Sequence record: OR861627.1
Strand: one strand, 5' to 3'
Origin: Escherichia phage phiD2-2
DNA: 49,337 nucleotides
The translations under genes were made by a program, and so were the position numbers. Numbering within the stretch: position 1 is the first letter of the stretch; each line of letters starts with the position of its first letter. Shown one piece after another: positions 2,332 to 49,337 of this stretch. The notes beneath the pieces are model-generated. The model had not been told where the DNA came from and ran no database searches. It saw only the letters and a program-made list of their open reading frames with translations.

Positions 2332-3900
2332 TTAACCCATCAGCCGAGGATTAATGAAAACAATATCATCAATCCGGCAAGTGTAGTTCATCTCTTCGAG
2401 CGTGATAAGAAGACTATCGATTCGCTCAGATACTTTCTGTTGACCGTTGAAAGGCGTAACGTTCCGGCACTTTGCAACGATGCTATGAATAGGTGCGCGG
2501 CCTTTGTTTTTCTTCGCGATCTCAGTGATAACATCAATCAGCTTACGAGATTCAGCCTCATCACCAGCATACCCGGCAGCGCTGGCAGACGACAGATAAG
2601 TCCTGGAAAGCTCATTGAAGATCATGATTGCTTCCTGCATTGTTTCAAGGTCAATCTCACGGTTGGAACGGTTCGGTGATTCACCCTCCCAATTCTTGAT
2701 CGTGTGGAGAACTGAAGCAATACGCAAGGCGTGCTTATCGAACTTGCCGAGATGACCGCGTAGCATTGAGTGAGAGTATTTCCCACCTGCGGCGAAATCC
2801 GGTTCCATCGCCTGACGCGCAAGGTTTAATTCACGCATAGCATTACGGCTTACAGAGAGAACAACGTTTTCCTCCTTCATGATGTTGTGAACGAGTCTGT
2901 AATATTTGCTAACCAGTCCTCGATCGACTTCTTTATACAATGCATCACCATTTTCATCACAAAGAATACGAGTACCTAAAAGCGGTTCCTCGCGAACTAA
3001 CAGGAAGCGCTCAGATACACCGATACCTCGTTGGCCTGCGTCCATGATACCTTTGATTGTTTCATCCTGCGCAATTACGCAGATCGAGCCAACCGGGCAA
3101 AGAGACAAGTTGTTGTCCTGATTGGAGCGAGCGACCTCCATATGGTTTTTATCCCACGCCTTAAGAATAAGCTCACTGTTAGATTTCTTATCTGAACCTC
3201 CATACGTAAGACCGAGCAATGTATTGATTGCCGTTGCCTCATCAGAAATTACGGAAAAGTGGCCCTGAACAGCGGCTACTTTCGCAAGACCTTCAGGTGT
3301 AGGATCTGATACAGCAAAAACAATATCAGCCATCTTTTTGATCTTCTCTTCCAGTTTTTCTTTGTCCTCGTATAGTGCCGCAGTCGTGTTTCCTTTAGGA
3401 TCATTCTTGATTTCCTTCTCAACCTGGCGTAGCTGACTGGTTAAACGAATACGTTCCTTTTTGCGCTCTTCATTCAGTCGCTGAATCTCCGCACGCATAG
3501 GTGTAATCGCCGCTGAGTTAATCGCGGACTTACCTGTTGATGGTGGCTGGCTGATTACCATGTAAAGCGCGGTCGGCTGTTCCTCTCCGTGATATTGCAC
3601 CCAAAACTTCCCGAGCATCGCGGCTGAGATGCAACCTATAAAATGAGCATACGCGGATGAAACCGGGAACTGGACTGATTCAGCTTTTGCTTTTGCATAT
3701 TCGAATACCAGGTTATCGCCACCTAACGAAATCAGAGGGAACTTATCGTTGCCGCTATTGATATCGATCGGATCTTGCCAAAATGAAACTGAGTCACCAT
3801 AGCTGTTTTCACGAATTGCGATCGCCACCGGATTAACTCCAGTGCTATTGGCGATCTCAATAATCTGTTGGTAATTCAGTTTTGGCTTAATATTAAACAT
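2332..3900 (-). CDS. P-loop NTPase, DUF3987-like putative replication/helicase-associated protein
   Basis: Walker-A-like PPSTGKS, long coiled-coil insert, acidic VISDEAT Walker-B-like stretch; ATG (MFNIKPK) preceded by AAGGAG. Family assignment is from memory of the architecture. Confidence 0.45.
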   Translation of the reverse strand: MFNIKPKLNYQQIIEIANSTGVNPVAIAIRENSYGDSVSFWQDPIDINSGNDKFPLISLGGDNLVFEYAKAKAESVQFPVSSAYAHFIGCISAAMLGKFWVQYHGEEQPTALYMVISQPPSTGKSAINSAAITPMRAEIQRLNEERKKERIRLTSQLRQVEKEIKNDPKGNTTAALYEDKEKLEEKIKKMADIVFAVSDPTPEGLAKVAAVQGHFSVISDEATAINTLLGLTYGGSDKKSNSELILKAWDKNHMEVARSNQDNNLSLCPVGSICVIAQDETIKGIMDAGQRGIGVSERFLLVREEPLLGTRILCDENGDALYKEVDRGLVSKYYRLVHNIMKEENVVLSVSRNAMRELNLARQAMEPDFAAGGKYSHSMLRGHLGKFDKHALRIASVLHTIKNWEGESPNRSNREIDLETMQEAIMIFNELSRTYLSSASAAGYAGDEAESRKLIDVITEIAKKNKGRAPIHSIVAKCRNVTPFNGQQKVSERIDSLLITLEEMNYTCRIDDIVFINPRLMG

Positions 3901-3972
3901 CACAATAAACTCCTTGGTTGACGGTGTAAATGATACACCGCCAATGGTACACGCGTTTTGCAAAAAGTGCTA
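3901..3972 (-). promoter_or_regulatory. gene-boundary cassette upstream of the DUF3987-like gene
   Basis: TAGCACTTTTTGCAAAAC, hairpin CGGTGTA/TACACCG around TATCAT, CCAAGGAG leader. Confidence 0.5.
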
Positions 3973-4914: not shown

Positions 4915-4993
4915 TTTTAATTCCTTTGTTTTGTTTGGTGTGTGAGTAATATACCTTACTCACTATTTATTGTCTTTAGCAATTAGTGCTATC
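4915..4993 (-). promoter_or_regulatory. gene-boundary cassette
   Basis: TAGCACTAATTGCTAAA, hairpin GTGAGTAA/TTACTCAC enclosing TATATT, AGGAA RBS. Confidence 0.5.
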
Positions 4994-8957: not shown

Positions 8958-9428
8958 ATGGCGACAATTACCGTATTTCTTGCTAAAGATGAGCTTGATG
9001 GCGAAATGTCATTCTTCGCGTTTGAGCATAAAACCGGCTCGCACTGGCACACTTACAGCCATTACACGGTTATCTCAATTGAAGCGTACGACGGCGAACT
9101 GCTCACTGATAAACTGAGTAATTTCATTGAAGCCGTTAAAGCTAGCGGCGGCTGCGAGTGGAAGGAAGATCACGAAGTTATGCGAATGTTTGAGATGGTC
9201 AATCCGGTTCGCCTTGAGTCGTTCGAGCTTGATGCTAATGTGACTATCAAGGTGAGAAAGTCGGGTGAGTTATTGCCAGGGATGCGTGTACTGACTGGTT
9301 ACTCTGGCCGTAAGGTGTGGCGCACTGTATCCAAGATTCGCCAGCGCTCGGCAACATGCTATAGCGTATTCTTTGATGATGGTTGGAATATGATGTCCGG
9401 TAGTGAGGTAAAGTATCTCACCAAATAG
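8958..9428 (+). CDS. hypothetical protein (156 aa)
   Basis: Track ORF with GGAGG RBS; TAG stop lies inside the downstream palindrome. Confidence 0.6.
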   Translation: MATITVFLAKDELDGEMSFFAFEHKTGSHWHTYSHYTVISIEAYDGELLTDKLSNFIEAVKASGGCEWKEDHEVMRMFEMVNPVRLESFELDANVTIKVRKSGELLPGMRVLTGYSGRKVWRTVSKIRQRSATCYSVFFDDGWNMMSGSEVKYLTK

Positions 9429-9506
9429 CACGAATTGTTAAAACCTGATCGGGGTATCTTGCTATAGTTACCCCATCGAAACGAGATACCAATCAGAGGA
9501 ATAACC
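9425..9506 (+). promoter_or_regulatory. gene-boundary cassette (upstream stop TAG inside palindrome)
   Basis: ATAGCACGAATTGTTAAAAC, hairpin GGGGTA/TACCCC enclosing TGcTATAGT, CATCGAAACGAG, CCAATCAGAGGAAT. Confidence 0.6.
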
Positions 9507-11587: not shown

Positions 11588-11736
11588 TGGCTGCGTGGGT
11601 CTTGATTATCTTGATGAGTACCGGTCCGGATCACGTATACATGGAAAGTCAGCAATCATGCAACAAGGCTCGGGAGGTGATTTCAGAGAACAAGCCGTTC
11701 GGATACGAAGTAAAAACGATGTGCGTTAAACGATAG
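11587..11736 (+). CDS. small membrane protein (about 49 aa)
   Basis: Hand-translated; ATG overlaps upstream TAA; hydrophobic N-terminus (AAWVLIILMSTG); TAG stop inside the 11733 palindrome. Confidence 0.35.
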   Translation: MAAWVLIILMSTGPDHVYMESQQSCNKAREVISENKPFGYEVKTMCVKR

Positions 11737-11816
11737 CACGAATTGCTAAACCTTCCGCAAGGCCATTTGATATAGTGGCCTTATTGAAGCAGAGCGACCA
11801 ATCAGAGGAATCGGCT
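11733..11816 (+). promoter_or_regulatory. gene-boundary cassette
   Basis: ATAGCACGAATTGCTAAAC, hairpin AAGGCCA/TGGCCTT enclosing TGaTATAGT, CCAATCAGAGGAAT. Confidence 0.6.
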
Positions 11817-12116
11817 ATGAAAATCAGATTAACCAGTAGCTACTTTAACCGTGAATCTTTCAATCAGTACATAATCACAGACGGAATGAATACAGGCATC
11901 GTCCTTGATGTATCCCACAACATTGGCGACGTTATGTTTGTATCAGCAACTGAGCTTGCAAAGTACGCAAAGCCAGAACATCGCCACCTGGCAGAGCCGC
12001 ACTTGAGCGATGGAAAGGTTACAGATTACGCATTCACCAAAGGTGAGTATGAAATCGTGAGATCTGGACCTTTCAGATTCTGGAACAAACTTAAATCAGG
12101 GGAGTTATTCAAATGA
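11817..12116 (+). CDS. hypothetical protein (about 99 aa)
   Basis: Track ORF 11775..12116 trimmed to ATG (MKIRLTSSYF) after CCAATCAGAGGAAT leader. Confidence 0.55.
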   Translation: MKIRLTSSYFNRESFNQYIITDGMNTGIVLDVSHNIGDVMFVSATELAKYAKPEHRHLAEPHLSDGKVTDYAFTKGEYEIVRSGPFRFWNKLKSGELFK

Positions 12117-12400
12117 GCAAAACTCATAAGTTAAAAATCGCCCCTGTACATTTCATTGGTGTAATGAACGGAACCAAAACGGCAGAGTTCCGCATCAATG
12201 ACCGAAACTTCCAATCTGGCGATATCCTGGAGCTATGCGAGTTCGATCGAGATGAGTTTACCGGGTGGGAAGTTCACGCCAGGGTATCCGATGTTACCGA
12301 TGTGACGCCATACATCAATCGCGGGTATGACGAGCAAGAATGCGACTTCACGCAATACGTGATGTTATCAATCAAGCCTTACAGGAAGGTTAGACCATGA
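12113..12400 (+). CDS. ASCH/PUA-like domain protein (95 aa)
   Basis: G-x-K-x-x-E-x-R followed by GD (NGTKTAEFRINDRNFQSGDILEL) matches the ASCH signature as I recall it. Confidence 0.5.
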   Translation: MSKTHKLKIAPVHFIGVMNGTKTAEFRINDRNFQSGDILELCEFDRDEFTGWEVHARVSDVTDVTPYINRGYDEQECDFTQYVMLSIKPYRKVRP

Positions 12401-13199: not shown

Positions 13200-13402
13200 C
13201 CGCAGAAGATGCGGCGCGTGACGCAGTGGAAGGAATGCGCCCAAATACCTCCAGAATCGCCCACTACTACAAGTTTGAGGTGTCGGCAGTGCAATTGGTC
13301 CACGAAATTTTAAGGCTCCCACAAGTCGATTCAGCGCGAGTAGTGACGTGCTTAAAAAATTATTTTTGCATCACTATTAAAACGAATAGCACGAATTGCT
13401 AA
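13184..13402 (+). CDS. hypothetical protein (72 aa)
   Basis: Track ORF; stop is the TAA inside the 13386 palindrome. Confidence 0.45.
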   Translation: MATIITAEDAARDAVEGMRPNTSRIAHYYKFEVSAVQLVHEILRLPQVDSARVVTCLKNYFCITIKTNSTNC

Positions 13403-13469
13403 AACTTGCTCAAGGGTATTTGATAGAATGCCCTTCGTTGAGTTAAGCAACCAATCAGAGGAATAAATC
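13386..13469 (+). promoter_or_regulatory. gene-boundary cassette
   Basis: ATAGCACGAATTGCTAAAAC, hairpin AGGGTA/TGCCCT enclosing TGaTAGAAT, CCAATCAGAGGAAT. Confidence 0.6.
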
Positions 13470-14081
13470 ATGGATAAAATTACCATTTGGGGCCAGACTG
13501 TCAACCTGTTTCTAGGTACTCGCCGTGTGGCAATCTTTGACTTCGACGGAACGCTGAGTGACGGCTCAAAACGTCTTCACCTGCTACCGACAAAAGATTT
13601 GCACTTGACTGAAAGCTGGTCTGAGTTTAACCGCGCGGCAATATTTGATAACCCAATCCAAAGCACGATCGACGTAATGAACTCCATGTATGCCGCTGGT
13701 TATCATGTGATAATTTTAACCGGGAGAAGCGATGAGGTGCGTTACGCATCTGAGTTATGGCTTAAGCATCACGGCGCAAGATATGATTACTTAGTCATGA
13801 GGCCGCATACCGACAACCGCAAAGACACGGTAATGAAAGAAGAGGCGGTGCGCGCGATCGGCGTTGATAACATTCTGGCAGCTTGGGATGACTCACCGCA
13901 AATTATTCCATTATTCCGATCGCTTGGAATAACCACGTATGCCGTAGTTGACTATGGCGATAACGTTCACGATCATTTAAAATCTCACGGGGTGGATGAG
14001 GTTTGCAATCATGAACCATCTGAGCCGCTACCGCCATTTGGCGATAAAATATGCATTAAGTGCAAGGAGTTATTGAAGTGA
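13470..14081 (+). CDS. HAD-superfamily phosphatase, resembles the 3'-phosphatase domain of T4 polynucleotide kinase/phosphatase
   Basis: Motif I FDFDGTL, motif II-like ILTGRS, downstream NRKDTVMKEE and AWDDSPQII...VVDYGD; resemblance to T4 Pnkp C-domain is from memory. Confidence 0.6.
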   Translation: MDKITIWGQTVNLFLGTRRVAIFDFDGTLSDGSKRLHLLPTKDLHLTESWSEFNRAAIFDNPIQSTIDVMNSMYAAGYHVIILTGRSDEVRYASELWLKHHGARYDYLVMRPHTDNRKDTVMKEEAVRAIGVDNILAAWDDSPQIIPLFRSLGITTYAVVDYGDNVHDHLKSHGVDEVCNHEPSEPLPPFGDKICIKCKELLK

Positions 14082-14191
14082 ACCTGTACGAATTTATTGC
14101 AGCACATCCTGTATTGACGGTTATCATCCTGTTAATCATCAATCACACTATCATCAATGTGGCAAAATTATTTTTAGGGAGATACTAACAT
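14078..14191 (+). CDS. possible small membrane peptide (about 37 aa)
   Basis: Hand-translated GTG-start ORF between phosphatase and kinase (VNLYEFIAAHPVLTVIILLIINHTIINVAKLFLGRY). Confidence 0.25.
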
Positions 14192-14762
14192 GAAAACAGC
14201 TATCATTTTAAACGGCGCACCTGGAGCGGGAAAAGACACTATCGGATGCATCCTTGCTGACACTTACGATCACGTAGCCTTGCGCAGCTTCAAAGCGCCA
14301 ATGTTTGAGATTGCCAGGGCAATCCTGGGTGAAGCTAACTACGAGTATTTCATGTTCTTGTATGAGGACCGTCGATATAAAGAAGAGCCAGCATCAATCC
14401 TGAACGGTAAAAGCCCGCGCCAGTTTATGATCTGGATTAGCGAGGAAGTCATCAAGCCGCAGTTCGGAAATCGCTTCTTCGGTATGCGAGCGGAAAGCAA
14501 GGTGAAAGAGTCGCACTCCCTTTCGGTATTTACTGATGGTGGATTCAAAGACGAAATCTTGCAGATGATTGAAGGTGATATCCAGGTCAAGCTATGTCGA
14601 ATACATCGCAACGGTTGCAGCTTTGATAACGACAGCCGCGACTATATCTATCTTGACGACATGATCGGGGTTAACGGTTATCAGGAATGTGACTTCTTTT
14701 CTGTCGAAGGTCATCCAGAAATTACCGCTCAGCACATAGCCGCCACGTTCATCAATAAATAG
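14190..14762 (+). CDS. deoxynucleoside monophosphate kinase-like P-loop kinase (T4 gp1-like)
   Basis: P-loop GAPGAGKDT, FKAPMFEIARAILG and LNGKSP motifs resemble T4 gene 1 dNMP kinase from memory; GGGAGA RBS. Confidence 0.55.
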   Translation: MKTAIILNGAPGAGKDTIGCILADTYDHVALRSFKAPMFEIARAILGEANYEYFMFLYEDRRYKEEPASILNGKSPRQFMIWISEEVIKPQFGNRFFGMRAESKVKESHSLSVFTDGGFKDEILQMIEGDIQVKLCRIHRNGCSFDNDSRDYIYLDDMIGVNGYQECDFFSVEGHPEITAQHIAATFINK

Positions 14763-14834
14763 CACGAATTGCTAAAACGTCGATGGGGTGATTTGATATA
14801 GTTACCTCATCGACAACGAAGAGAGAAAATCTAA
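14760..14834 (+). promoter_or_regulatory. gene-boundary cassette
   Basis: TAGCACGAATTGCTAAAAC, hairpin enclosing TGaTATAGT, CATCGACAACGAAGAGAG. Confidence 0.6.
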
Positions 14835-15044
14835 ATGACGGTATCAACTGATAAGTTTTTCACTTGCACTAAAACTTCTGAAGTATTCGAACTGGTTCAT
14901 ACTGATAATGGTGATTTCATGCATGACGGTTGCGACGTTTTCATTGAAGTGAAAGAAAGCGACTATGACGACGGAGTTTATTACAGCCCGGCAGTTAACA
15001 CGCAGTTTTTTACCCCGATCGAGGAAGATGGAGAAGAGGCATGA
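14835..15044 (+). CDS. hypothetical protein (69 aa)
   Basis: Track ORF with cassette upstream. Confidence 0.5.
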   Translation: MTVSTDKFFTCTKTSEVFELVHTDNGDFMHDGCDVFIEVKESDYDDGVYYSPAVNTQFFTPIEEDGEEA

Positions 15045-15400
15045 TTACGATTAACCTGTCAGAGAAGCAAGCTCGTGAAATCCTGGACACGATCGGCGAC
15101 CAGTTACACATCAAGGGCGCTACCGCCGAACTTCTTAACCAGATCGAAAGGCAGCTTACCCCAGCATCAACGAATCAAGCTGAGTTCGCAGCATGGAAGA
15201 GTGAACGCATCTTGCCAAATATCATCAAGGCATGGAAGCGCAAGCATAAAAAAGAAATCAACGTTGAGGATTTGTTTACCGACGAATTAAGCCCTTCAAA
15301 GGTTGCTCAATATCAGTTGCGATACATGGAATCAGTTTGCAATCAGGTTTTAGGTGTTAATTTTCATTTTGGAGAGGTAAATAATGTTCGGATTAAGTGA
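15041..15400 (+). CDS. hypothetical protein (119 aa)
   Basis: Track ORF, start overlaps upstream stop. Confidence 0.55.
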   Translation: MITINLSEKQAREILDTIGDQLHIKGATAELLNQIERQLTPASTNQAEFAAWKSERILPNIIKAWKRKHKKEINVEDLFTDELSPSKVAQYQLRYMESVCNQVLGVNFHFGEVNNVRIK

Positions 15401-40750: not shown

Positions 40751-40782
40751 AAAAATCCCCGCAATGCGGGGATTTTATCATT
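40751..40782. terminator. bidirectional terminator between SSB and side tail fibre
   Basis: A5, stem AATCCCCGC/GCGGGGATT, T-run. Confidence 0.7.
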
Positions 40783-42283
40783 TGGACTTCAACATTTTTA
40801 TCTCTTCTTGTAACTCTTCAACTTTCTTTATTGTATCCTGTAAAGCTCTCATAGTGTCAAGCAATAAAGGAGTTGTATCAAGCTCAAGCCTTTCAACTTT
40901 TGGCCCGTTTAGCTCGTGGCTCTCATACACCCTTCTCTTAACATATAGATTGTCGATCTCTTCTATCTCCTGAGCTATAACACCTCTCCTTACCCTTTCT
41001 TGCTCATCATCGTTAAATATAAAGTTCCTAAATCTCATTGATTTTATGTTGTTGTATGCAATGCTTGATTCATCATCCTTTATGCCGTGCTTTATATTTC
41101 TGTCAGATGCCGGAACCTGTTGGAAACTTCCAGCCCCTTGCGGTCCAGCGTAAGATATTTGCCCTGAAGCCATAAACCTGAAATGCATTTGCAGACCAAT
41201 ATTGCCTGCTCCATCCCTATCTTGAGTGCCTACTGATATTTGTGCCCTGGGCCATTCAGGATTACCCGTAGTCATCATGCCAAATGCTACGCCGCCAACG
41301 TATCCCTGACCTCTGGTGTCACACGATCCAGCAATAAGTGATTGATAGTTTTCAGCACCACTATCAGCGGTGTAAGCATTACCCTGGAAGCATGAAGCAG
41401 ACCACATCTGGTTGTAACCCATAGATGTTTTCTGGCATAAAAACTGATTAGCTCTGAATCTATTGTTAGTCTCGAAGTAGTTTGCCCCCTCATAAAATAA
41501 TAAAGCCCCAGCATAACCATTATCGCTACGTTCTTTTCTGACGTAAATACCTGGCGTAGATATTCCATCAGGTGACATAATCATCAATGATGACAATATG
41601 GACTGACTACCCCAGCTAGAACCGTCCCATGAATTCCTTCCTGCACCTATAGCGCCAGTGGTGTTAATAGCAAGAAAGTTAACAGCATCATTTTCACCTA
41701 ACCCAATATTTTTTCTTGACTCTTTTTTATCCTCAAGACCAGCTAAATTGCCATCCTTAGTTAAAAGATTTTCAGCATTGATGCTGTTAGCTGCGTCTTT
41801 TGCTTCTTGAGCACTTACCGCAGCCGCATCTTTTGAGCTTACCGCATCGTCACGCGCTAATTCAGCCTGATTTTGCGCAGCTTGAGAATCAGATTTCGCC
41901 TGATTCACATCAGCAACTATTTGCTCAAGTTTATTCATATCAAGCTGATTTATCAGGTCTATAGCTGCCGCAATCTCAGTCTCTTTGCTTTGATAGTATC
42001 GAAGAGTCTCGGCGACGTTTTGAGCTAATCCGTTAACGGTTAGAGAGTCATTAAGTAGGATCACATACTTACCGTCATCGGCAGTCTGACCATCAGTAGA
42101 GATAGCCTTTAATTCTGTATCACTAACGATATCGCTAATCACAGCTAGCTTAATTGGTTGCTCAAGGAACACGATAGTTGCACCTACGCGAATAAGAGCA
42201 AGCTGGTCTTTCCATTTTGTATCGGTTCCGTGAACCGTTCCGTCTGCATCCATTGATGCAGTACCGCGTCGATATAAAGCCAT
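40778..42283 (-). CDS. side tail fibre with C-terminal intramolecular chaperone (peptidase S74-like) domain
   Basis: 501 aa; coiled-coil N-terminal region, Gly-rich beta region, C-terminal PASDRNIKHGIKDD followed by helical segment. Confidence 0.7.
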   Translation of the reverse strand: MALYRRGTASMDADGTVHGTDTKWKDQLALIRVGATIVFLEQPIKLAVISDIVSDTELKAISTDGQTADDGKYVILLNDSLTVNGLAQNVAETLRYYQSKETEIAAAIDLINQLDMNKLEQIVADVNQAKSDSQAAQNQAELARDDAVSSKDAAAVSAQEAKDAANSINAENLLTKDGNLAGLEDKKESRKNIGLGENDAVNFLAINTTGAIGAGRNSWDGSSWGSQSILSSLMIMSPDGISTPGIYVRKERSDNGYAGALLFYEGANYFETNNRFRANQFLCQKTSMGYNQMWSASCFQGNAYTADSGAENYQSLIAGSCDTRGQGYVGGVAFGMMTTGNPEWPRAQISVGTQDRDGAGNIGLQMHFRFMASGQISYAGPQGAGSFQQVPASDRNIKHGIKDDESSIAYNNIKSMRFRNFIFNDDEQERVRRGVIAQEIEEIDNLYVKRRVYESHELNGPKVERLELDTTPLLLDTMRALQDTIKKVEELQEEIKMLKSK

Positions 42284-42322
42284 AATATAAACTCCTTAAG
42301 TAAATAGCACGAATTGCTAAAC
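42284..42322 (-). promoter_or_regulatory. palindrome in operator-like position in the tail-fibre leader
   Basis: TTTAGCAATTCGTGCTATTT lies between the predicted promoter and the AAGGAG RBS. Confidence 0.45.
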
Positions 42323-42326
42323 ACAG

Positions 42327-42383: not shown

Positions 42384-43319
42384 TTATAGTAGATCACTTG
42401 CTGAGAATAACTTAGCTTGCATTCCTGAGCGGTATCCTCCCTGATTCGGGATGATTATTTTTAATTGTCTGTCGTCTGCCATGTATAAAGTTTCTTTATC
42501 AGATGGTTCGCACGCCACCCTTACCTCCCGATCTCCCTTGTATCTGTACGCAACCATTTCTAGATTTTCAGGAGTGAAGCAGGCCCATACCTCTTGCTTT
42601 GTGTGAAATGCAATATGCTGAGCATCAATCCAATTAAGGCATAAGTAGATCGCTTTTTCAGTTTTACCAGTCACGGCAACCGAGCAACTTGTGTATTTCT
42701 TTGCATAAAATGACTCCCTACCCTCCTCATCAATAATCAAAATATTGCAAAACTCTTCATCAAGACCGTCCTCGTGTACAAGTTGACATGGTATGGTGTG
42801 AAATACACTCTCGCCGCCATCCTCTCGACGTTTTACGCCAACGTCGAATGATTCAGTAGGTAGCGACTCAAACATGCTTAGAGGTGTGTTTATGCGCTTC
42901 TCTGTGCGCTCCATAACTTTCATCACTGCCTCGTGTTCTGCCATCATAACATTGACGCCAGCTACCGGAGTTCTTCGCGCTTTTTTGTTGGCCTTGACAA
43001 TGTATTCCTGCGGAACCTTGCCGAGAAATCTTCCCAGGATATTTATACATTCGCTGTACGGCATACCAGTTAATTTAATCAACCAACCGACTCCAGAGTC
43101 GTTACCGCATGAGTTGCAGATCGCACCGCCGTCGCCCGGAGTGTTAAGGTTATCAGTCCAGCGAAAGCGGTCCTTACCCCCGCAGTTAGGGCAAGGTTGG
43201 TGTTTCTTATTAAAAACATCATTCGGCAATCCGCAGATTGATTGGAAAGCCTCGCGCCATAACCCCTTCATGTACGGCAAAACGTCCTCTTTCTGAAACA
43301 TCATAAATTCTTCGTTCAC
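42384..43319 (-). CDS. DNA primase (zinc-ribbon + TOPRIM-like)
   Basis: N-terminal CPNCGGKDRFRW...CNSCG zinc ribbon, acidic C-terminal half; followed by a leftward terminator. Confidence 0.6.
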   Translation of the reverse strand: MNEEFMMFQKEDVLPYMKGLWREAFQSICGLPNDVFNKKHQPCPNCGGKDRFRWTDNLNTPGDGGAICNSCGNDSGVGWLIKLTGMPYSECINILGRFLGKVPQEYIVKANKKARRTPVAGVNVMMAEHEAVMKVMERTEKRINTPLSMFESLPTESFDVGVKRREDGGESVFHTIPCQLVHEDGLDEEFCNILIIDEEGRESFYAKKYTSCSVAVTGKTEKAIYLCLNWIDAQHIAFHTKQEVWACFTPENLEMVAYRYKGDREVRVACEPSDKETLYMADDRQLKIIIPNQGGYRSGMQAKLFSASDLL

Positions 43320-47139: not shown

Positions 47140-47387
47140 TGAACGAGAAAATGATTCCGGTTAAGTTAACTGATCAAGGTTTATGGCTGCTTTATCGAGC
47201 TACCTGCTGCGAAATCATGGAACAAAACGGATTGACGCAGGATGTTATTGGTTGCGATCTGTGGGAGTTCACTAGCTCTCTTGATATGTCTTTCGATGAG
47301 ATAAAAAATGAATACATAGAGAATTGGCCTTCAATCATACAGAGAGACGTAGAGGAACTTAAAGCTGATATGATCGTTCAGCACTAA
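47136..47387 (+). CDS. hypothetical protein (about 83 aa)
   Basis: Track ORF 47094..47387 trimmed to MMNEKM with GAGGAAA RBS. Confidence 0.5.
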   Translation: MMNEKMIPVKLTDQGLWLLYRATCCEIMEQNGLTQDVIGCDLWEFTSSLDMSFDEIKNEYIENWPSIIQRDVEELKADMIVQH

Positions 47388-47453
47388 TTGCTAAAACTAC
47401 CCGGCGAAAGTCGGGTATAGTTATTTCATCGAGACGAAATGAGGAATCAAAAG
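47379..47453 (+). promoter_or_regulatory. gene-boundary cassette
   Basis: CAGCACTAATTGCTAAAAC with TAA stop inside, hairpin CCCGGCgaaaGTCGGG, TATAGT, CATCGAGACGAAATGAGGAAT. Confidence 0.55.
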
Positions 47454-48223: not shown

Positions 48224-49337
48224 ATGTCACAAGCTAAAATCACTACCGAACAACTTGTCGAAGAGCGCATGAACGGCCTAACACTTCGCGAGATCGCGGA
48301 AAAGTACGGTATGCACATTCGAACTGTTGAAGCTCGCCACGCAAAGTTGGCAAAAGAAGGTCACTTCCACGGTAACGAGCATGTTGCTAAGAACGTACCG
48401 GAAGGATTCATGGTAAAAGGCACATCAACGATGATTCGCGGCGATGGGACCGAGGTGGTGCGCTGGGTTAAGACCGATCAGGACCGTGAGAAGATTGCAG
48501 CAATGATGGAAGCGGCGCGTATTGCATTCTGTGAAGATCTGCCGCGAGCAAAGCCAACTGAGCTACTAACCTCACAAGGGCTTACTACAGCGATGGGTAA
48601 GCTGGCACTCTATCCGGTATTCGATCTTCATATTGGCGCGCTTGCTCATAAGCATGAATGCGGAGAGAACTATTCTACCGATGTAGCGGAAAAAGTGCTG
48701 AGTGACTTCTTTAATTACGCGATCGATATTGCTCCGAACGCAGAGAAGGCTGTTCTGTTAATCGGCGGTGACTTCCTGCACTCTGACGGACTTGATGCAG
48801 TTACTCCGGCAAGCGGTCACGTTCTTGATCAGGATTCACGATATGCTAAATTGGTGCATGTAGCGATTCGATCGGTGCGACGAGCTATAGACAAAATGCT
48901 GACGAAACACAAAGAGGTCGAAGTTCAGGTTATCGAAGGAAACCACGACCAGGCCGGGATGATTTGGTTACGCGCAGCAATGGCAGCATACTATGAAGAC
49001 GAGCCGCGAGTATTCGTTGACGTCAGTCCTATGATTCTGCATAAGACTCGTTGGGGAAATACCTTGTTGGGATACACTCACGGGCACACTATGAAAAAGG
49101 CAGACACGCGACTTGCAGCGATGGCAGCAGATTTCCGATCGGATTTCGGCGAGAGCAAGTATGTGTATACTCATAGCGGGCACTGGCATCACCAGACAAT
49201 CACTGAGCACTCGCTAGGTATTGATGAAGTACACGGTCAGTTAGGCGCGAAAGATGCATACGCAGCACGCGGAGGGTGGCGCTCATATCGCCAGGCGGCG
49301 GTAATTGTTTACGATAAGCAGTTTGGTGAAATCGGTC
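48224..49337 (+). CDS. HTH-containing calcineurin-like metallophosphoesterase (SbcD/Mre11-like?), 3'-truncated by window edge
   Basis: AAGGA RBS; N-terminal HTH-like LTLREIAEKYGMHIRTVEARHAKL; phosphoesterase motifs FDLHIG, GGDFLH, GNHD, YTHGH, SGHWHH; frame open to window end. Confidence 0.6.
   Translation, partial: MSQAKITTEQLVEERMNGLTLREIAEKYGMHIRTVEARHAKLAKEGHFHGNEHVAKNVPEGFMVKGTSTMIRGDGTEVVRWVKTDQDREKIAAMMEAARIAFCEDLPRAKPTELLTSQGLTTAMGKLALYPVFDLHIGALAHKHECGENYSTDVAEKVLSDFFNYAIDIAPNAEKAVLLIGGDFLHSDGLDAVTPASGHVLDQDSRYAKLVHVAIRSVRRAIDKMLTKHKEVEVQVIEGNHDQAGMIWLRAAMAAYYEDEPRVFVDVSPMILHKTRWGNTLLGYTHGHTMKKADTRLAAMAADFRSDFGESKYVYTHSGHWHHQTITEHSLGIDEVHGQLGAKDAYAARGGWRSYRQAAVIVYDKQFGEIG

Follow-up and report, generated by a model that had tools for sequence, protein, structure and literature searches.

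Polynucleotide kinase/phosphatase of phage T4 (Pnkp, the PseT protein; Protein Data Bank (PDB) entries 1ltq, 2ia5 and 5uj0) has an N-terminal 5'-kinase domain and a C-terminal 3'-phosphatase domain, the latter of which heals 2',3'-cyclic phosphate ends in the T4 PseT/Rnl1 pathway. Pnkp1 of the bacterial Pnkp1-Rnl-Hen1 RNA repair complex (4xrp, 4xru) is also bifunctional (312 amino acids (aa), with a kinase domain) and has a ligase and Hen1 as partners. Among the phage proteins that handle deoxynucleoside monophosphates (dNMPs), T4 gp1 (1dek, 1del; Pfam DNMK) serves a DNA made with hydroxymethyl-dCMP, and T7 gp1.7, which has no P-loop, supplies the deoxynucleoside triphosphate (dNTP) pool with dNMPs from degraded host DNA; T7 gp1.7 is encoded among DNA-metabolism genes, together with ligase, endonuclease and exonuclease genes. 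For the Dnk kinase of phage T5 (T5.043), activity on each of the four dNMPs has been reported (cited in PMC10653934 and PMC11447400). T5 has canonical DNA and, like the T1-type phages, destroys the DNA of its host. Here we describe a pair of genes related to these systems in Escherichia phage phiD2-2 (OR861627.1), a T1-like phage (Drexlerviridae, Tunavirus) whose circularly permuted genome of 49,337 bases is the window that was analysed: a stand-alone HAD phosphatase gene and a short P-loop kinase gene, with a small hydrophobic open reading frame (ORF) between them.

The pair is already annotated and discussed in T1-like phages (TLS in 2024, KanT1 in 2026). According to the re-annotation of TLS, the host genome is degraded by T1 and TLS and its nucleotides are re-used, the early genes responsible being unknown; in the same work TLS Gp09 and Gp14 are annotated as 'polynucleotide kinase' and dNMP kinase (PMC11447400). 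The KanT1 study states that in Drexlerviridae the polynucleotide kinase and dNMP kinase genes often come after a DNA repair exonuclease, and suggests that these genes extend the module for replication and raise the supply of nucleotides (PMC13164509). In the literature we found no biochemical study of the stand-alone phosphatase or of the short kinase. A paper on retron Eco2 proved to be a false lead, T4 PNK being merely a reagent there.

Gene content of the locus

Over the 2.1-kb stretch around the locus the sequence agrees at 98.8% with Escherichia phage vB_EcoS_SH2 and at 99.9% with phage FCWL1, and 63 phage records cover at least 80% of this stretch. The phosphatase and the kinase are each 100% identical to their vB_EcoS_SH2 counterpart. 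The locus is made up of three genes in the order phosphatase, 36-aa hydrophobic ORF, kinase:

13470-14081, plus strand: predicted HAD (DxDxT) phosphatase, stand-alone, 203 aa, in the 3'-phosphatase clade of T4 Pnkp (profile, fold and residue matches)
14078-14188, plus strand: 36-aa single-pass hydrophobic ORF, (V/M)NLYEFIAAHPVLTVIILLIINHTIINVAKLFLGRY (conservation, ratio of nonsynonymous to synonymous substitution rates (dN/dS))
14190-14762, plus strand: predicted short P-loop kinase of the T4 gp1/T5 Dnk dNMP-kinase kind, 190 aa (PHROG, fold, profile-profile comparison)

GenBank records name the phosphatase gene 'polynucleotide kinase' or '3'-phosphatase, 5'-polynucleotide kinase'. The kinase gene appears there as 'hypothetical protein', 'putative P-loop NTPase' or 'deoxynucleoside monophosphate kinase'.

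A phosphatase of the Pnkp clade

The sequence-only reading of the window had placed the HAD motif FDFDGTL in an ORF at 13470-14081, had noted a likeness to the 3'-phosphatase domain of T4 Pnkp and had proposed that the 5'-kinase domain is missing. The motif stands exactly there, at residues 22-28 (motif I, D24-F-D26-G-T28, nucleotides (nt) 13539-13553), and the gene is likely to use AGAGGA at 13456-13461 for ribosome binding. The likeness is borne out by family models, a profile search of the PDB, fold comparison and profile-profile alignment. The protein scores 62.4 bits with Pfam HAD_PNKP (PF25109; gathering cut-off 27.6, E=6.6e-17), its residues 20-163 aligning to positions 3-141 of the 143 in the profile, and it matches PHROG 415 with E=1.2e-67. 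A profile of 33 phosphatase homologues found only Pnkp-type phosphatases in the PDB, the best solved match being Pnkp1 (4xrp, E 5.7e-16; 26-27% identity in the phosphatase domain), with T4 Pnk (1ltq) at 3.4e-9. For the predicted structure (pLDDT 82.6, with a poorly modelled C-terminal tail) the top Foldseek match is 5uj0, the T4 Pnkp 3'-phosphatase domain (6e-8), and Pnkp1 is also similar. In hhalign, residues 6-165 pair with T4 Pnkp 146-301 (probability 97.6%, E 2.9e-12), and nothing aligned within the T4 kinase domain. Sugar phosphatases, named beforehand as relatives that would speak against the proposal, did not come up as the best solved relatives; these are the T4 Pnkp domain and Pnkp1.

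The HAD signature is complete, with D24/D26/T28, T84 (LTGRS), K118/K123 and D140-D141 (WDDS) invariant or at least 90% conserved in the 33 homologues. From published mutagenesis we take the residues essential to the T4 Pnkp phosphatase to be Asp165, Asp167, Arg176, Arg213, Asp254, Asp277 and Asp278, a numbering that was confirmed on the T4 sequence. By hmmsearch and hhalign they align to D24, D26, R35, R86, D119, D140 and D141, and all seven are invariant or nearly so across the homologue family. Since the full T4-equivalent set of catalytic residues is kept, the protein is very probably an active enzyme of the Pnkp clade. By homology it is a Mg-dependent HAD acyl-phosphatase related to the 3'-phosphatase domain of T4 Pnkp, with which it shares the DxDxT fold and the HAD_PNKP family at 20-28% identity. 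The N-terminal P-loop 5'-OH kinase domain of T4 Pnkp is lacking, as had been proposed, because just 19 residues precede motif I. PHROG 415, a profile of 218 positions, is distinct from the full-length PHROG 505. The label 'polynucleotide kinase', widespread in GenBank and PHROG for the T1-type gene, is on this evidence a misnomer, since the protein appears to be a phosphatase only.

The stand-alone proteins differ from the two solved relatives in several details. An insertion of about 16 aa (residues ~36-51, LHLLPtkDLhlTESW) comes right after motif I and R35. It is common to the T1-like, Msk, K1G, Aeromonas AHPMCC11 and JSE homologues and is absent from T4 Pnkp and Pnkp1, which makes it specific to the stand-alone clade. 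Conversely, the DPTKYYR insertion of T4 Pnkp is absent here, and the window protein has, unlike T4 Pnkp, a conserved C-terminal SHG motif and an optional C-x-H...C-x-x-C tail. In the model an extra helix at residues 48-59 falls within the region of the insertion (pLDDT 62-77). In HAD enzymes the C1 cap site follows motif I; capless members act on macromolecules, capped ones on small molecules. Because the insertion occupies this substrate-selecting position, the substrate may differ from that of T4 Pnkp. Class B acid phosphatase came up as a weak secondary Pfam match, as did the deoxyribonucleotidase family NT5C with the K1G protein. For both the phosphatase and the kinase, NCBIfam gave generic HAD and kinase matches only, all sub-threshold, and the PADLOC defence models gave no match.

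The optional tail lies at the C-terminus of the phosphatase:

14004-14078, plus strand: optional C-terminal phosphatase tail, 26 residues, C179-x-H181-x13-C195-x-x-C198 (alignment of homologues)

It is a putative small zinc-binding knuckle, its four putative metal ligands (C-x-H-x(8-15)-C-x-x-C) being kept in diverged homologues. The motif is doubled in homologue P0137 and missing in T1 and many near-identical Tunavirus phages, among which the tail is gained and lost as a 26-residue indel. Its model confidence is low (pLDDT 53-67).

A short kinase related to T4 gp1 and T5 Dnk

The next large gene had been described from its sequence as having a GKDT P-loop and an LNGKSP block, and as resembling T4 gp1 rather than the Pnk kinase. 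Both motifs are present, GAGKDT at residues 12-17 (P-loop G9-T17, nt 14214-14240) and LNGKSP at 71-76, with FKAPMFEIARAILG between them at 34-47; T4 gp1 has RSGKDT at residues 11-16 and LNGKSP at 90-95. The FKAPMFEIARAILG block is nearer to that of T5 Dnk (FAKPVYELASVILG) than to that of T4 gp1 (LAGPIKDALAYAWG). No Pfam or NCBIfam model exceeds its threshold for the kinase, and searches of the PDB by sequence (phmmer and family profile) gave generic P-loop matches only. The link to T4 gp1 rests on PHROG, fold and profile-profile comparison. The kinase matches PHROG 139, 'deoxynucleoside monophosphate kinase', with E 4.7e-46 at profile positions 82-260, which is the region matched by T4 gp1 itself (E 1.9e-65, positions 83-261); the GKDT P-loop, a DR(E) motif and LNGKSP are common to the two proteins. 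The predicted structure is confident (pLDDT 95), and over most of the chain the model is most similar to the dNMP kinase fold (T4 gp1, 1dek). Nearly every match with a name among predicted viral structures is a dNMP kinase; a BFVD entry named nucleoside 2-deoxyribosyltransferase (297 residues) matches the model over 206 columns. By profile comparison the closest characterised relative is T5 Dnk (hhalign probability 96.5%, E 8e-10; common motifs SFxKPxxExAxxILG, SPRxxM and TDxxFxxE). With T4 gp1, to which identity is 13-20%, the hhalign match has E 1e-5 and spans 137-178 columns, the identical LNGKSP among them.

Residues K15, D16, T17, R77, D116, E122, R140 and D148 are invariant in the kinase family, T4 gp1 and T5 Dnk. 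In the alignment R61, R77, M80, D116, E122, R140 and D148 correspond to T4 R68, R132, M135, D175, E181, R197 and D204. The acceptor site of T4 gp1 has been described as K37, R68, R132 and R177 for the phosphate, M135 for the sugar, and T140, D175, R177 and E181 for the base (PMC10653934, Table 2). Kept from this site are R61 for R68, R77 for R132, M80 for M135, D116 for D175 and E122 for E181; K37, R177 and T140 are not conserved. The short kinase family has in addition invariant residues of its own, N8, S84, E85, K89, G118, F119 and R150. We therefore place the kinase, by its profile and predicted fold, in a branch of short, divergent proteins among phage enzymes of the dNMP-kinase kind, outside the curated DNMK family. 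The earlier preference for gp1 over Pnk is thus upheld by PHROG 139, the fold ranking and the motif matches. Profile searches and structure prediction had both been suggested as checks, and they agree: the former assign the phosphatase to the Pnkp-type HAD and the kinase to PHROG 139, with the DNMK model unmatched, and the latter places the phosphatase nearest to 5uj0 and Pnkp1 and the kinase nearest to dNMP kinases.

Gene neighbourhoods in other phages

Viral contigs were scanned with the kinase profile, which returned 80 loci. A HAD_PNKP gene is found within about 2 kb of the kinase in 58 of them, always upstream on the same strand and often overlapping. No fused HAD-kinase ORF was seen among 92 loci. 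Three layouts can be told apart. In Tunavirus the pair stands among early genes, and a calcineurin-type 'DNA repair exonuclease' is encoded at a separate site. The same exonuclease is immediately upstream of the pair in other Drexlerviridae, Msk and K1G (Guernseyvirinae). In podovirus-like genomes a different metallophosphoesterase (PHROG 221) precedes the pair or the kinase alone; these contigs carry DNA polymerase, exonuclease and endonuclease VII genes, and their gp1-like kinase is in a position equivalent to that of T7 gp1.7, which is a functional analogue only and an unrelated protein. The two metallophosphoesterases belong to unrelated families, and PDB sequence searches with both returned nothing useful. 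In T5 the Dnk gene is not adjacent to a Pnkp-type phosphatase, unlike the window kinase.

The calcineurin-type protein is also encoded in the window:

48224-49337, plus strand: metallophosphoesterase of the calcineurin type ('DNA repair exonuclease' in its annotation), truncated at the window end

Owing to the circular permutation of the genome, the window ends fall within this gene, which runs from 48224 to the end and resumes at base 1. The protein is 44% identical (E 1e-104) to K1G gp22, which matches PHROG 704 and adjoins the K1G phosphatase-kinase pair. Since an orthologue stands directly upstream of the pair in other phage groups, the window metallophosphoesterase is a possible functional partner of the pair, encoded elsewhere in the genome.

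Blocks of a metallophosphoesterase, an optional Pnkp-type HAD and a gp1-like kinase were observed in unrelated phages (survey loci L058, 7492-11520; L085, 265-4145; L084, 1889-4055). The genes of L058 run exonuclease, endonuclease VII, metallophosphoesterase, kinase and ATP-dependent DNA ligase, a succession that recalls bacterial Pnkp, where kinase, metallophosphoesterase and ligase modules are joined. In Aeromonas phage 4_4572 the kinase comes after a ribonucleotide reductase gene and a nucleoside 2-deoxyribosyltransferase-like gene. A stand-alone Pnkp-type HAD of 158 aa with motif I DLDFT was seen in the T4-like phage JSE (L091, 3498-3974); its gene overlaps the end of nrdB, upstream of denA, and JSE also keeps pseT and rnlA. 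This protein is 32% identical (E 1e-21) to the T1-type phosphatase, closer than the T4-type pseT genes are.

Some relatives have lost the phosphatase and kept the kinase. Comparison of L038 with L040 reveals a clean deletion of about 1.4 kb, and in Shigella phage phiL (L002, about 4186) a premature stop falls just past motif I of the phosphatase (annotated coding sequence (CDS) of 408 nt), the kinase being intact. Because of these natural losses, phosphatase and kinase must be seen as accessory and not obligately coupled.

Possible roles of the pair

T1-type phages carry neither a DNA polymerase gene nor genes for nucleotide synthesis; they degrade the host chromosome and rebuild their DNA from its nucleotides. 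The explanation that we favour, with about even confidence, is that the pair serves to recover DNA precursors from broken-down host DNA and to remove 3'-phosphates. The kinase would most likely convert canonical dNMPs to deoxynucleoside diphosphates, and so feed host-derived dNMPs to the dNTP pool, a role that parallels those of T5 Dnk and T7 gp1.7; we know of no modified bases in T1-type phages. The phosphatase would most likely strip 3'-phosphates from DNA ends, oligonucleotides or 3'-dNMPs, so that 3'-OH-dependent exonucleases, polymerase and ligase could use nicked DNA and the products of breakdown. The nuclease or phosphodiesterase step would fall to the metallophosphoesterase found ahead of the pair in other phages. 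The sequence-only reading had left a choice between end healing, as a counter to host anticodon nucleases, and remodelling of the nucleotide pool. The evidence leans to nucleotide-pool or DNA metabolism and away from anticodon nucleases, because the kinase is of the dNMP type, no ligase domain was found in the phage (window ORFs of at least 180 aa and the annotation of the near-identical FCWL1), and relatives of both genes lie beside genes of nucleotide metabolism and host-DNA degradation. The cassette, together with the metallophosphoesterase that joins it in other phages, is a concrete candidate for part of the pathway with which T1-type phages re-use host DNA (PMC11447400). In annotation, the kinase, now 'hypothetical protein' or 'P-loop NTPase', could be named a dNMP-kinase-like protein. 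The practical value is modest.

Several points weigh against this explanation. The function proposed for both proteins derives from homology and gene neighbourhood. Host-DNA cleavage products with 5'-phosphates would not obviously need a 3'-phosphatase for dNMP salvage. Part of the co-occurrence of phosphatase and kinase may reflect shared ancestry, since most of it comes from related Drexlerviridae. The kinase has no match to Pfam DNMK (PF21448) at E<=1, whereas T4 gp1 itself scores 354.9 bits. A control alignment of the kinase with T4 Pnkp gave E 2.7e-6 in hhalign, no worse than with T4 gp1, but over 24 P-loop columns only. Since T4 gp1 and the T4 Pnkp kinase score alike, the E-value by itself does not discriminate, and the two are separated by alignment length, motifs outside the P-loop and fold ranking. 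The kinase is also without the insert of about 45 residues of T4 gp1 and T5 Dnk (the latter a protein of 250 aa); in the comparison with T4 gp1 it is 36 residues after LNGKSP that are missing. T4 Arg11 and Lys37 are not conserved, being replaced by G12 and F39 (with a Lys two residues earlier); E85 stands for T140 and Y152 for His206, and an invariant Gly118 is found where T4 Arg177 and T5 Arg172 sit. Arg177 of T4 gp1 touches both the phosphate and the base (PMC10653934). The invariant R150 of the lid may compensate for the lost acceptor-site residues. Finally, the adjacency of phosphoesterase and kinase, with a ligase in L058, fits a module for end healing and sealing equally well.

In such a module, with end healing split over two genes, the HAD would clear 3'-phosphates (or 2',3'-cyclic phosphates) and the gp1-like kinase would have been recruited as a 5'-OH polynucleotide kinase, a non-orthologous replacement of the Pnk kinase domain; nicks in phage DNA or breaks in RNA would thereby regain 3'-OH/5'-P ends, to be sealed by a ligase of the host or the phage. 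We consider this unlikely. It would account for a phosphatase of the Pnkp clade with the complete T4 catalytic set, for the fixed phosphatase-then-kinase order with often overlapping genes in several phage families, for the metallophosphoesterase that replaces or joins the HAD and the DNA ligase after the kinase in L058, and for the loss of T4 gp1 Arg177 in a family with invariant residues of its own. However, the nearest solved and characterised relatives of the kinase are dNMP kinases and not Pnk-type enzymes, and R61 and R77, the equivalents of the acceptor-phosphate arginines of T4 gp1, are retained. Hydroxyl kinases of this fold have a general-base Asp after strand 2, as Asp35 of T4 Pnk, and there is no Asp at this place in the window kinase, the sequence there being SFKAPMF. 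Besides, no ligase was found in the phage (window ORFs of at least 180 aa, FCWL1 annotation), no HAD-kinase fusion was seen in the 92 loci, and close relatives have kept the kinase without the phosphatase. The wider idea of a mobile nucleic-acid end-repair module, made up of metallophosphoesterase, Pnkp-type HAD and a gp1-like kinase (joined by a DNA ligase in some podovirus-like contigs), in which the dNMP-kinase fold replaces the Pnk kinase and phosphorylates 5'-OH ends of polynucleotides, is quite doubtful, more so than the two-gene version. If true, phages of several families could mend 3'-P/5'-OH breaks from host nucleases, and an enzyme with the dNMP-kinase fold that works on polynucleotide ends would represent a new way of end healing.

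The clade-specific insertion also bears on the substrate of the phosphatase. The enzyme might act on mononucleotides, as a nucleotidase for 3'- or 5'-(d)NMPs, and not on polynucleotide ends. The pool would then be trimmed or sanitised, for example by removal of dead-end 3'-dNMPs or of nucleotides that are not wanted, and the kinase would channel the wanted dNMPs. This is somewhat unlikely. The insertion at the C1 cap site, absent from T4 Pnkp and Pnkp1, and the extra modelled helix point in this direction, as do the clade member that JSE holds beside nrdB on top of a full pseT and the weak matches to class B acid phosphatase and NT5C. The insertion is short, however, and modelled with low confidence, a 5'-dNMP phosphatase beside a dNMP kinase would run a futile cycle unless their specificities differ, and the optional Cys/His tail and the nuclease neighbours would fit a nucleic-acid substrate equally. 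A nucleotidase role overlaps, moreover, with salvage of host-derived dNMPs as favoured here, in which 3'-dNMPs are already allowed as substrates. As for T4-like repair of tRNA or other RNA against host anticodon nucleases such as PrrC or RloC, its sole support is that the phosphatase is homologous to the T4 Pnkp domain, and we regard it as highly improbable. Neither a Pnk-type 5'-kinase nor an RNA ligase, the partners in the T4 pathway of Pnkp and Rnl1, was found in the phage (again in window ORFs of at least 180 aa and the FCWL1 annotation), nor are the kinase domain, ligase and Hen1 of the Pnkp1 complex present. Host RtcB ligase needs a 3'-phosphate as substrate, and removal of this phosphate would rob it of its substrate. 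JSE has genuine pseT and rnlA besides the stand-alone clade member, and neither protein of the pair matched a PADLOC defence model.

The small hydrophobic ORF

A tiny membrane ORF had been noted between the two genes from the sequence. It exists and is conserved, but the conserved unit is the 36 aa that start at GTG 14078 and not the 42-aa GTG ORF of the longer reading (14060-14188). AAGGAG precedes GTG 14078, the start overlaps the phosphatase stop (GTGA), and the stop of the ORF is one base before the kinase ATG. In relatives whose phosphatase has no C-terminal tail the ORF begins with ATG. It is 94-100% conserved in 13 Tunavirus loci, with weaker homologues in L046 and L018, and is annotated as a CDS of 111 nt in phage LeonhardEuler (Bas13). 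No family match was found in Pfam, PHROG, NCBIfam or PADLOC. In comparisons with Tunavirus relatives the kinase has a dN/dS of about 0.02 and the phosphatase core one of 0.04-0.1; most values for the 36-aa ORF, whose changes are mostly synonymous, are also 0.04-0.1. All three ORFs are under strong purifying selection. In phage T1 (L008, 5465-5959) a homing endonuclease of the HNH/AP2 type, 164 aa, stands where the 36-aa ORF would be, between the phosphatase and kinase genes, and changes the C-terminus of the phosphatase.

Promoter-like repeats around the cassette

A repeated element with an extended -10-like box is found on either side of the three genes:

13386-13429, plus strand: promoter-like repeat 5' of the cassette, with the 20-nt element ATAGCACGAATTGCTAAAAC at 13386-13405 and the extended -10-like box TGATAGAAT at 13421-13429
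14759-14802, plus strand: second promoter-like repeat, with the element at 14759-14778 and the box TGATATAGT at 14794-14802 (copy alignment)

The core of the 20-nt element is palindromic, TAGCA-N5-TGCTA. The window has 7 copies against 0 expected (4973-4992 on the minus strand, 9425-9444, 11733-11752, 13386-13405, 14759-14778, 42304-42323 and 47378-47397), and 16-18 nt beyond most of them comes a TGnTATAGT-like extended -10 box, plus a conserved TACCTCATCGA. From TTGCTA within the element to the -10 box there are 22 nt, which exceeds the standard -35 spacing, and a scan of the region for sigma-70 promoters and terminators remained at chance level. Element and box together are probably a phage early promoter/operator signal. 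One copy stands 84 nt 5' of the phosphatase start, and the next overlaps the kinase stop TAG (14760-14762). Because of these positions, the three closely spaced ORFs seem to form a single transcription unit; the second repeat would be the start of the next unit and would therefore bound the three-gene cassette. A segment of 72 nt 3' of the kinase gene (14763-14834), which holds the second promoter-like element, is absent from FCWL1.

Neighbouring genes and deposited annotation

Small early genes nearby (12113-12400, 15041-15400) encode a DUF3850/ASCH-like protein, named 'RNA-binding protein' in relatives, and a DUF7180 protein. In the family-model search of the window ORFs the remaining neighbour genes of the locus had no family match. 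In the FCWL1 record (PP558327) all CDS are entered on the plus strand, and those that correspond to the window ORFs at 2332-3963, 40778-42283 and 42384-43319, all on the minus strand here, have the same coordinates and lengths. Among the products of these minus-strand ORFs are a tail-fibre-like protein of 501 aa with a Peptidase_S74 chaperone domain and a DUF3987 protein. The strand annotation deposited for FCWL1 looks wrong.

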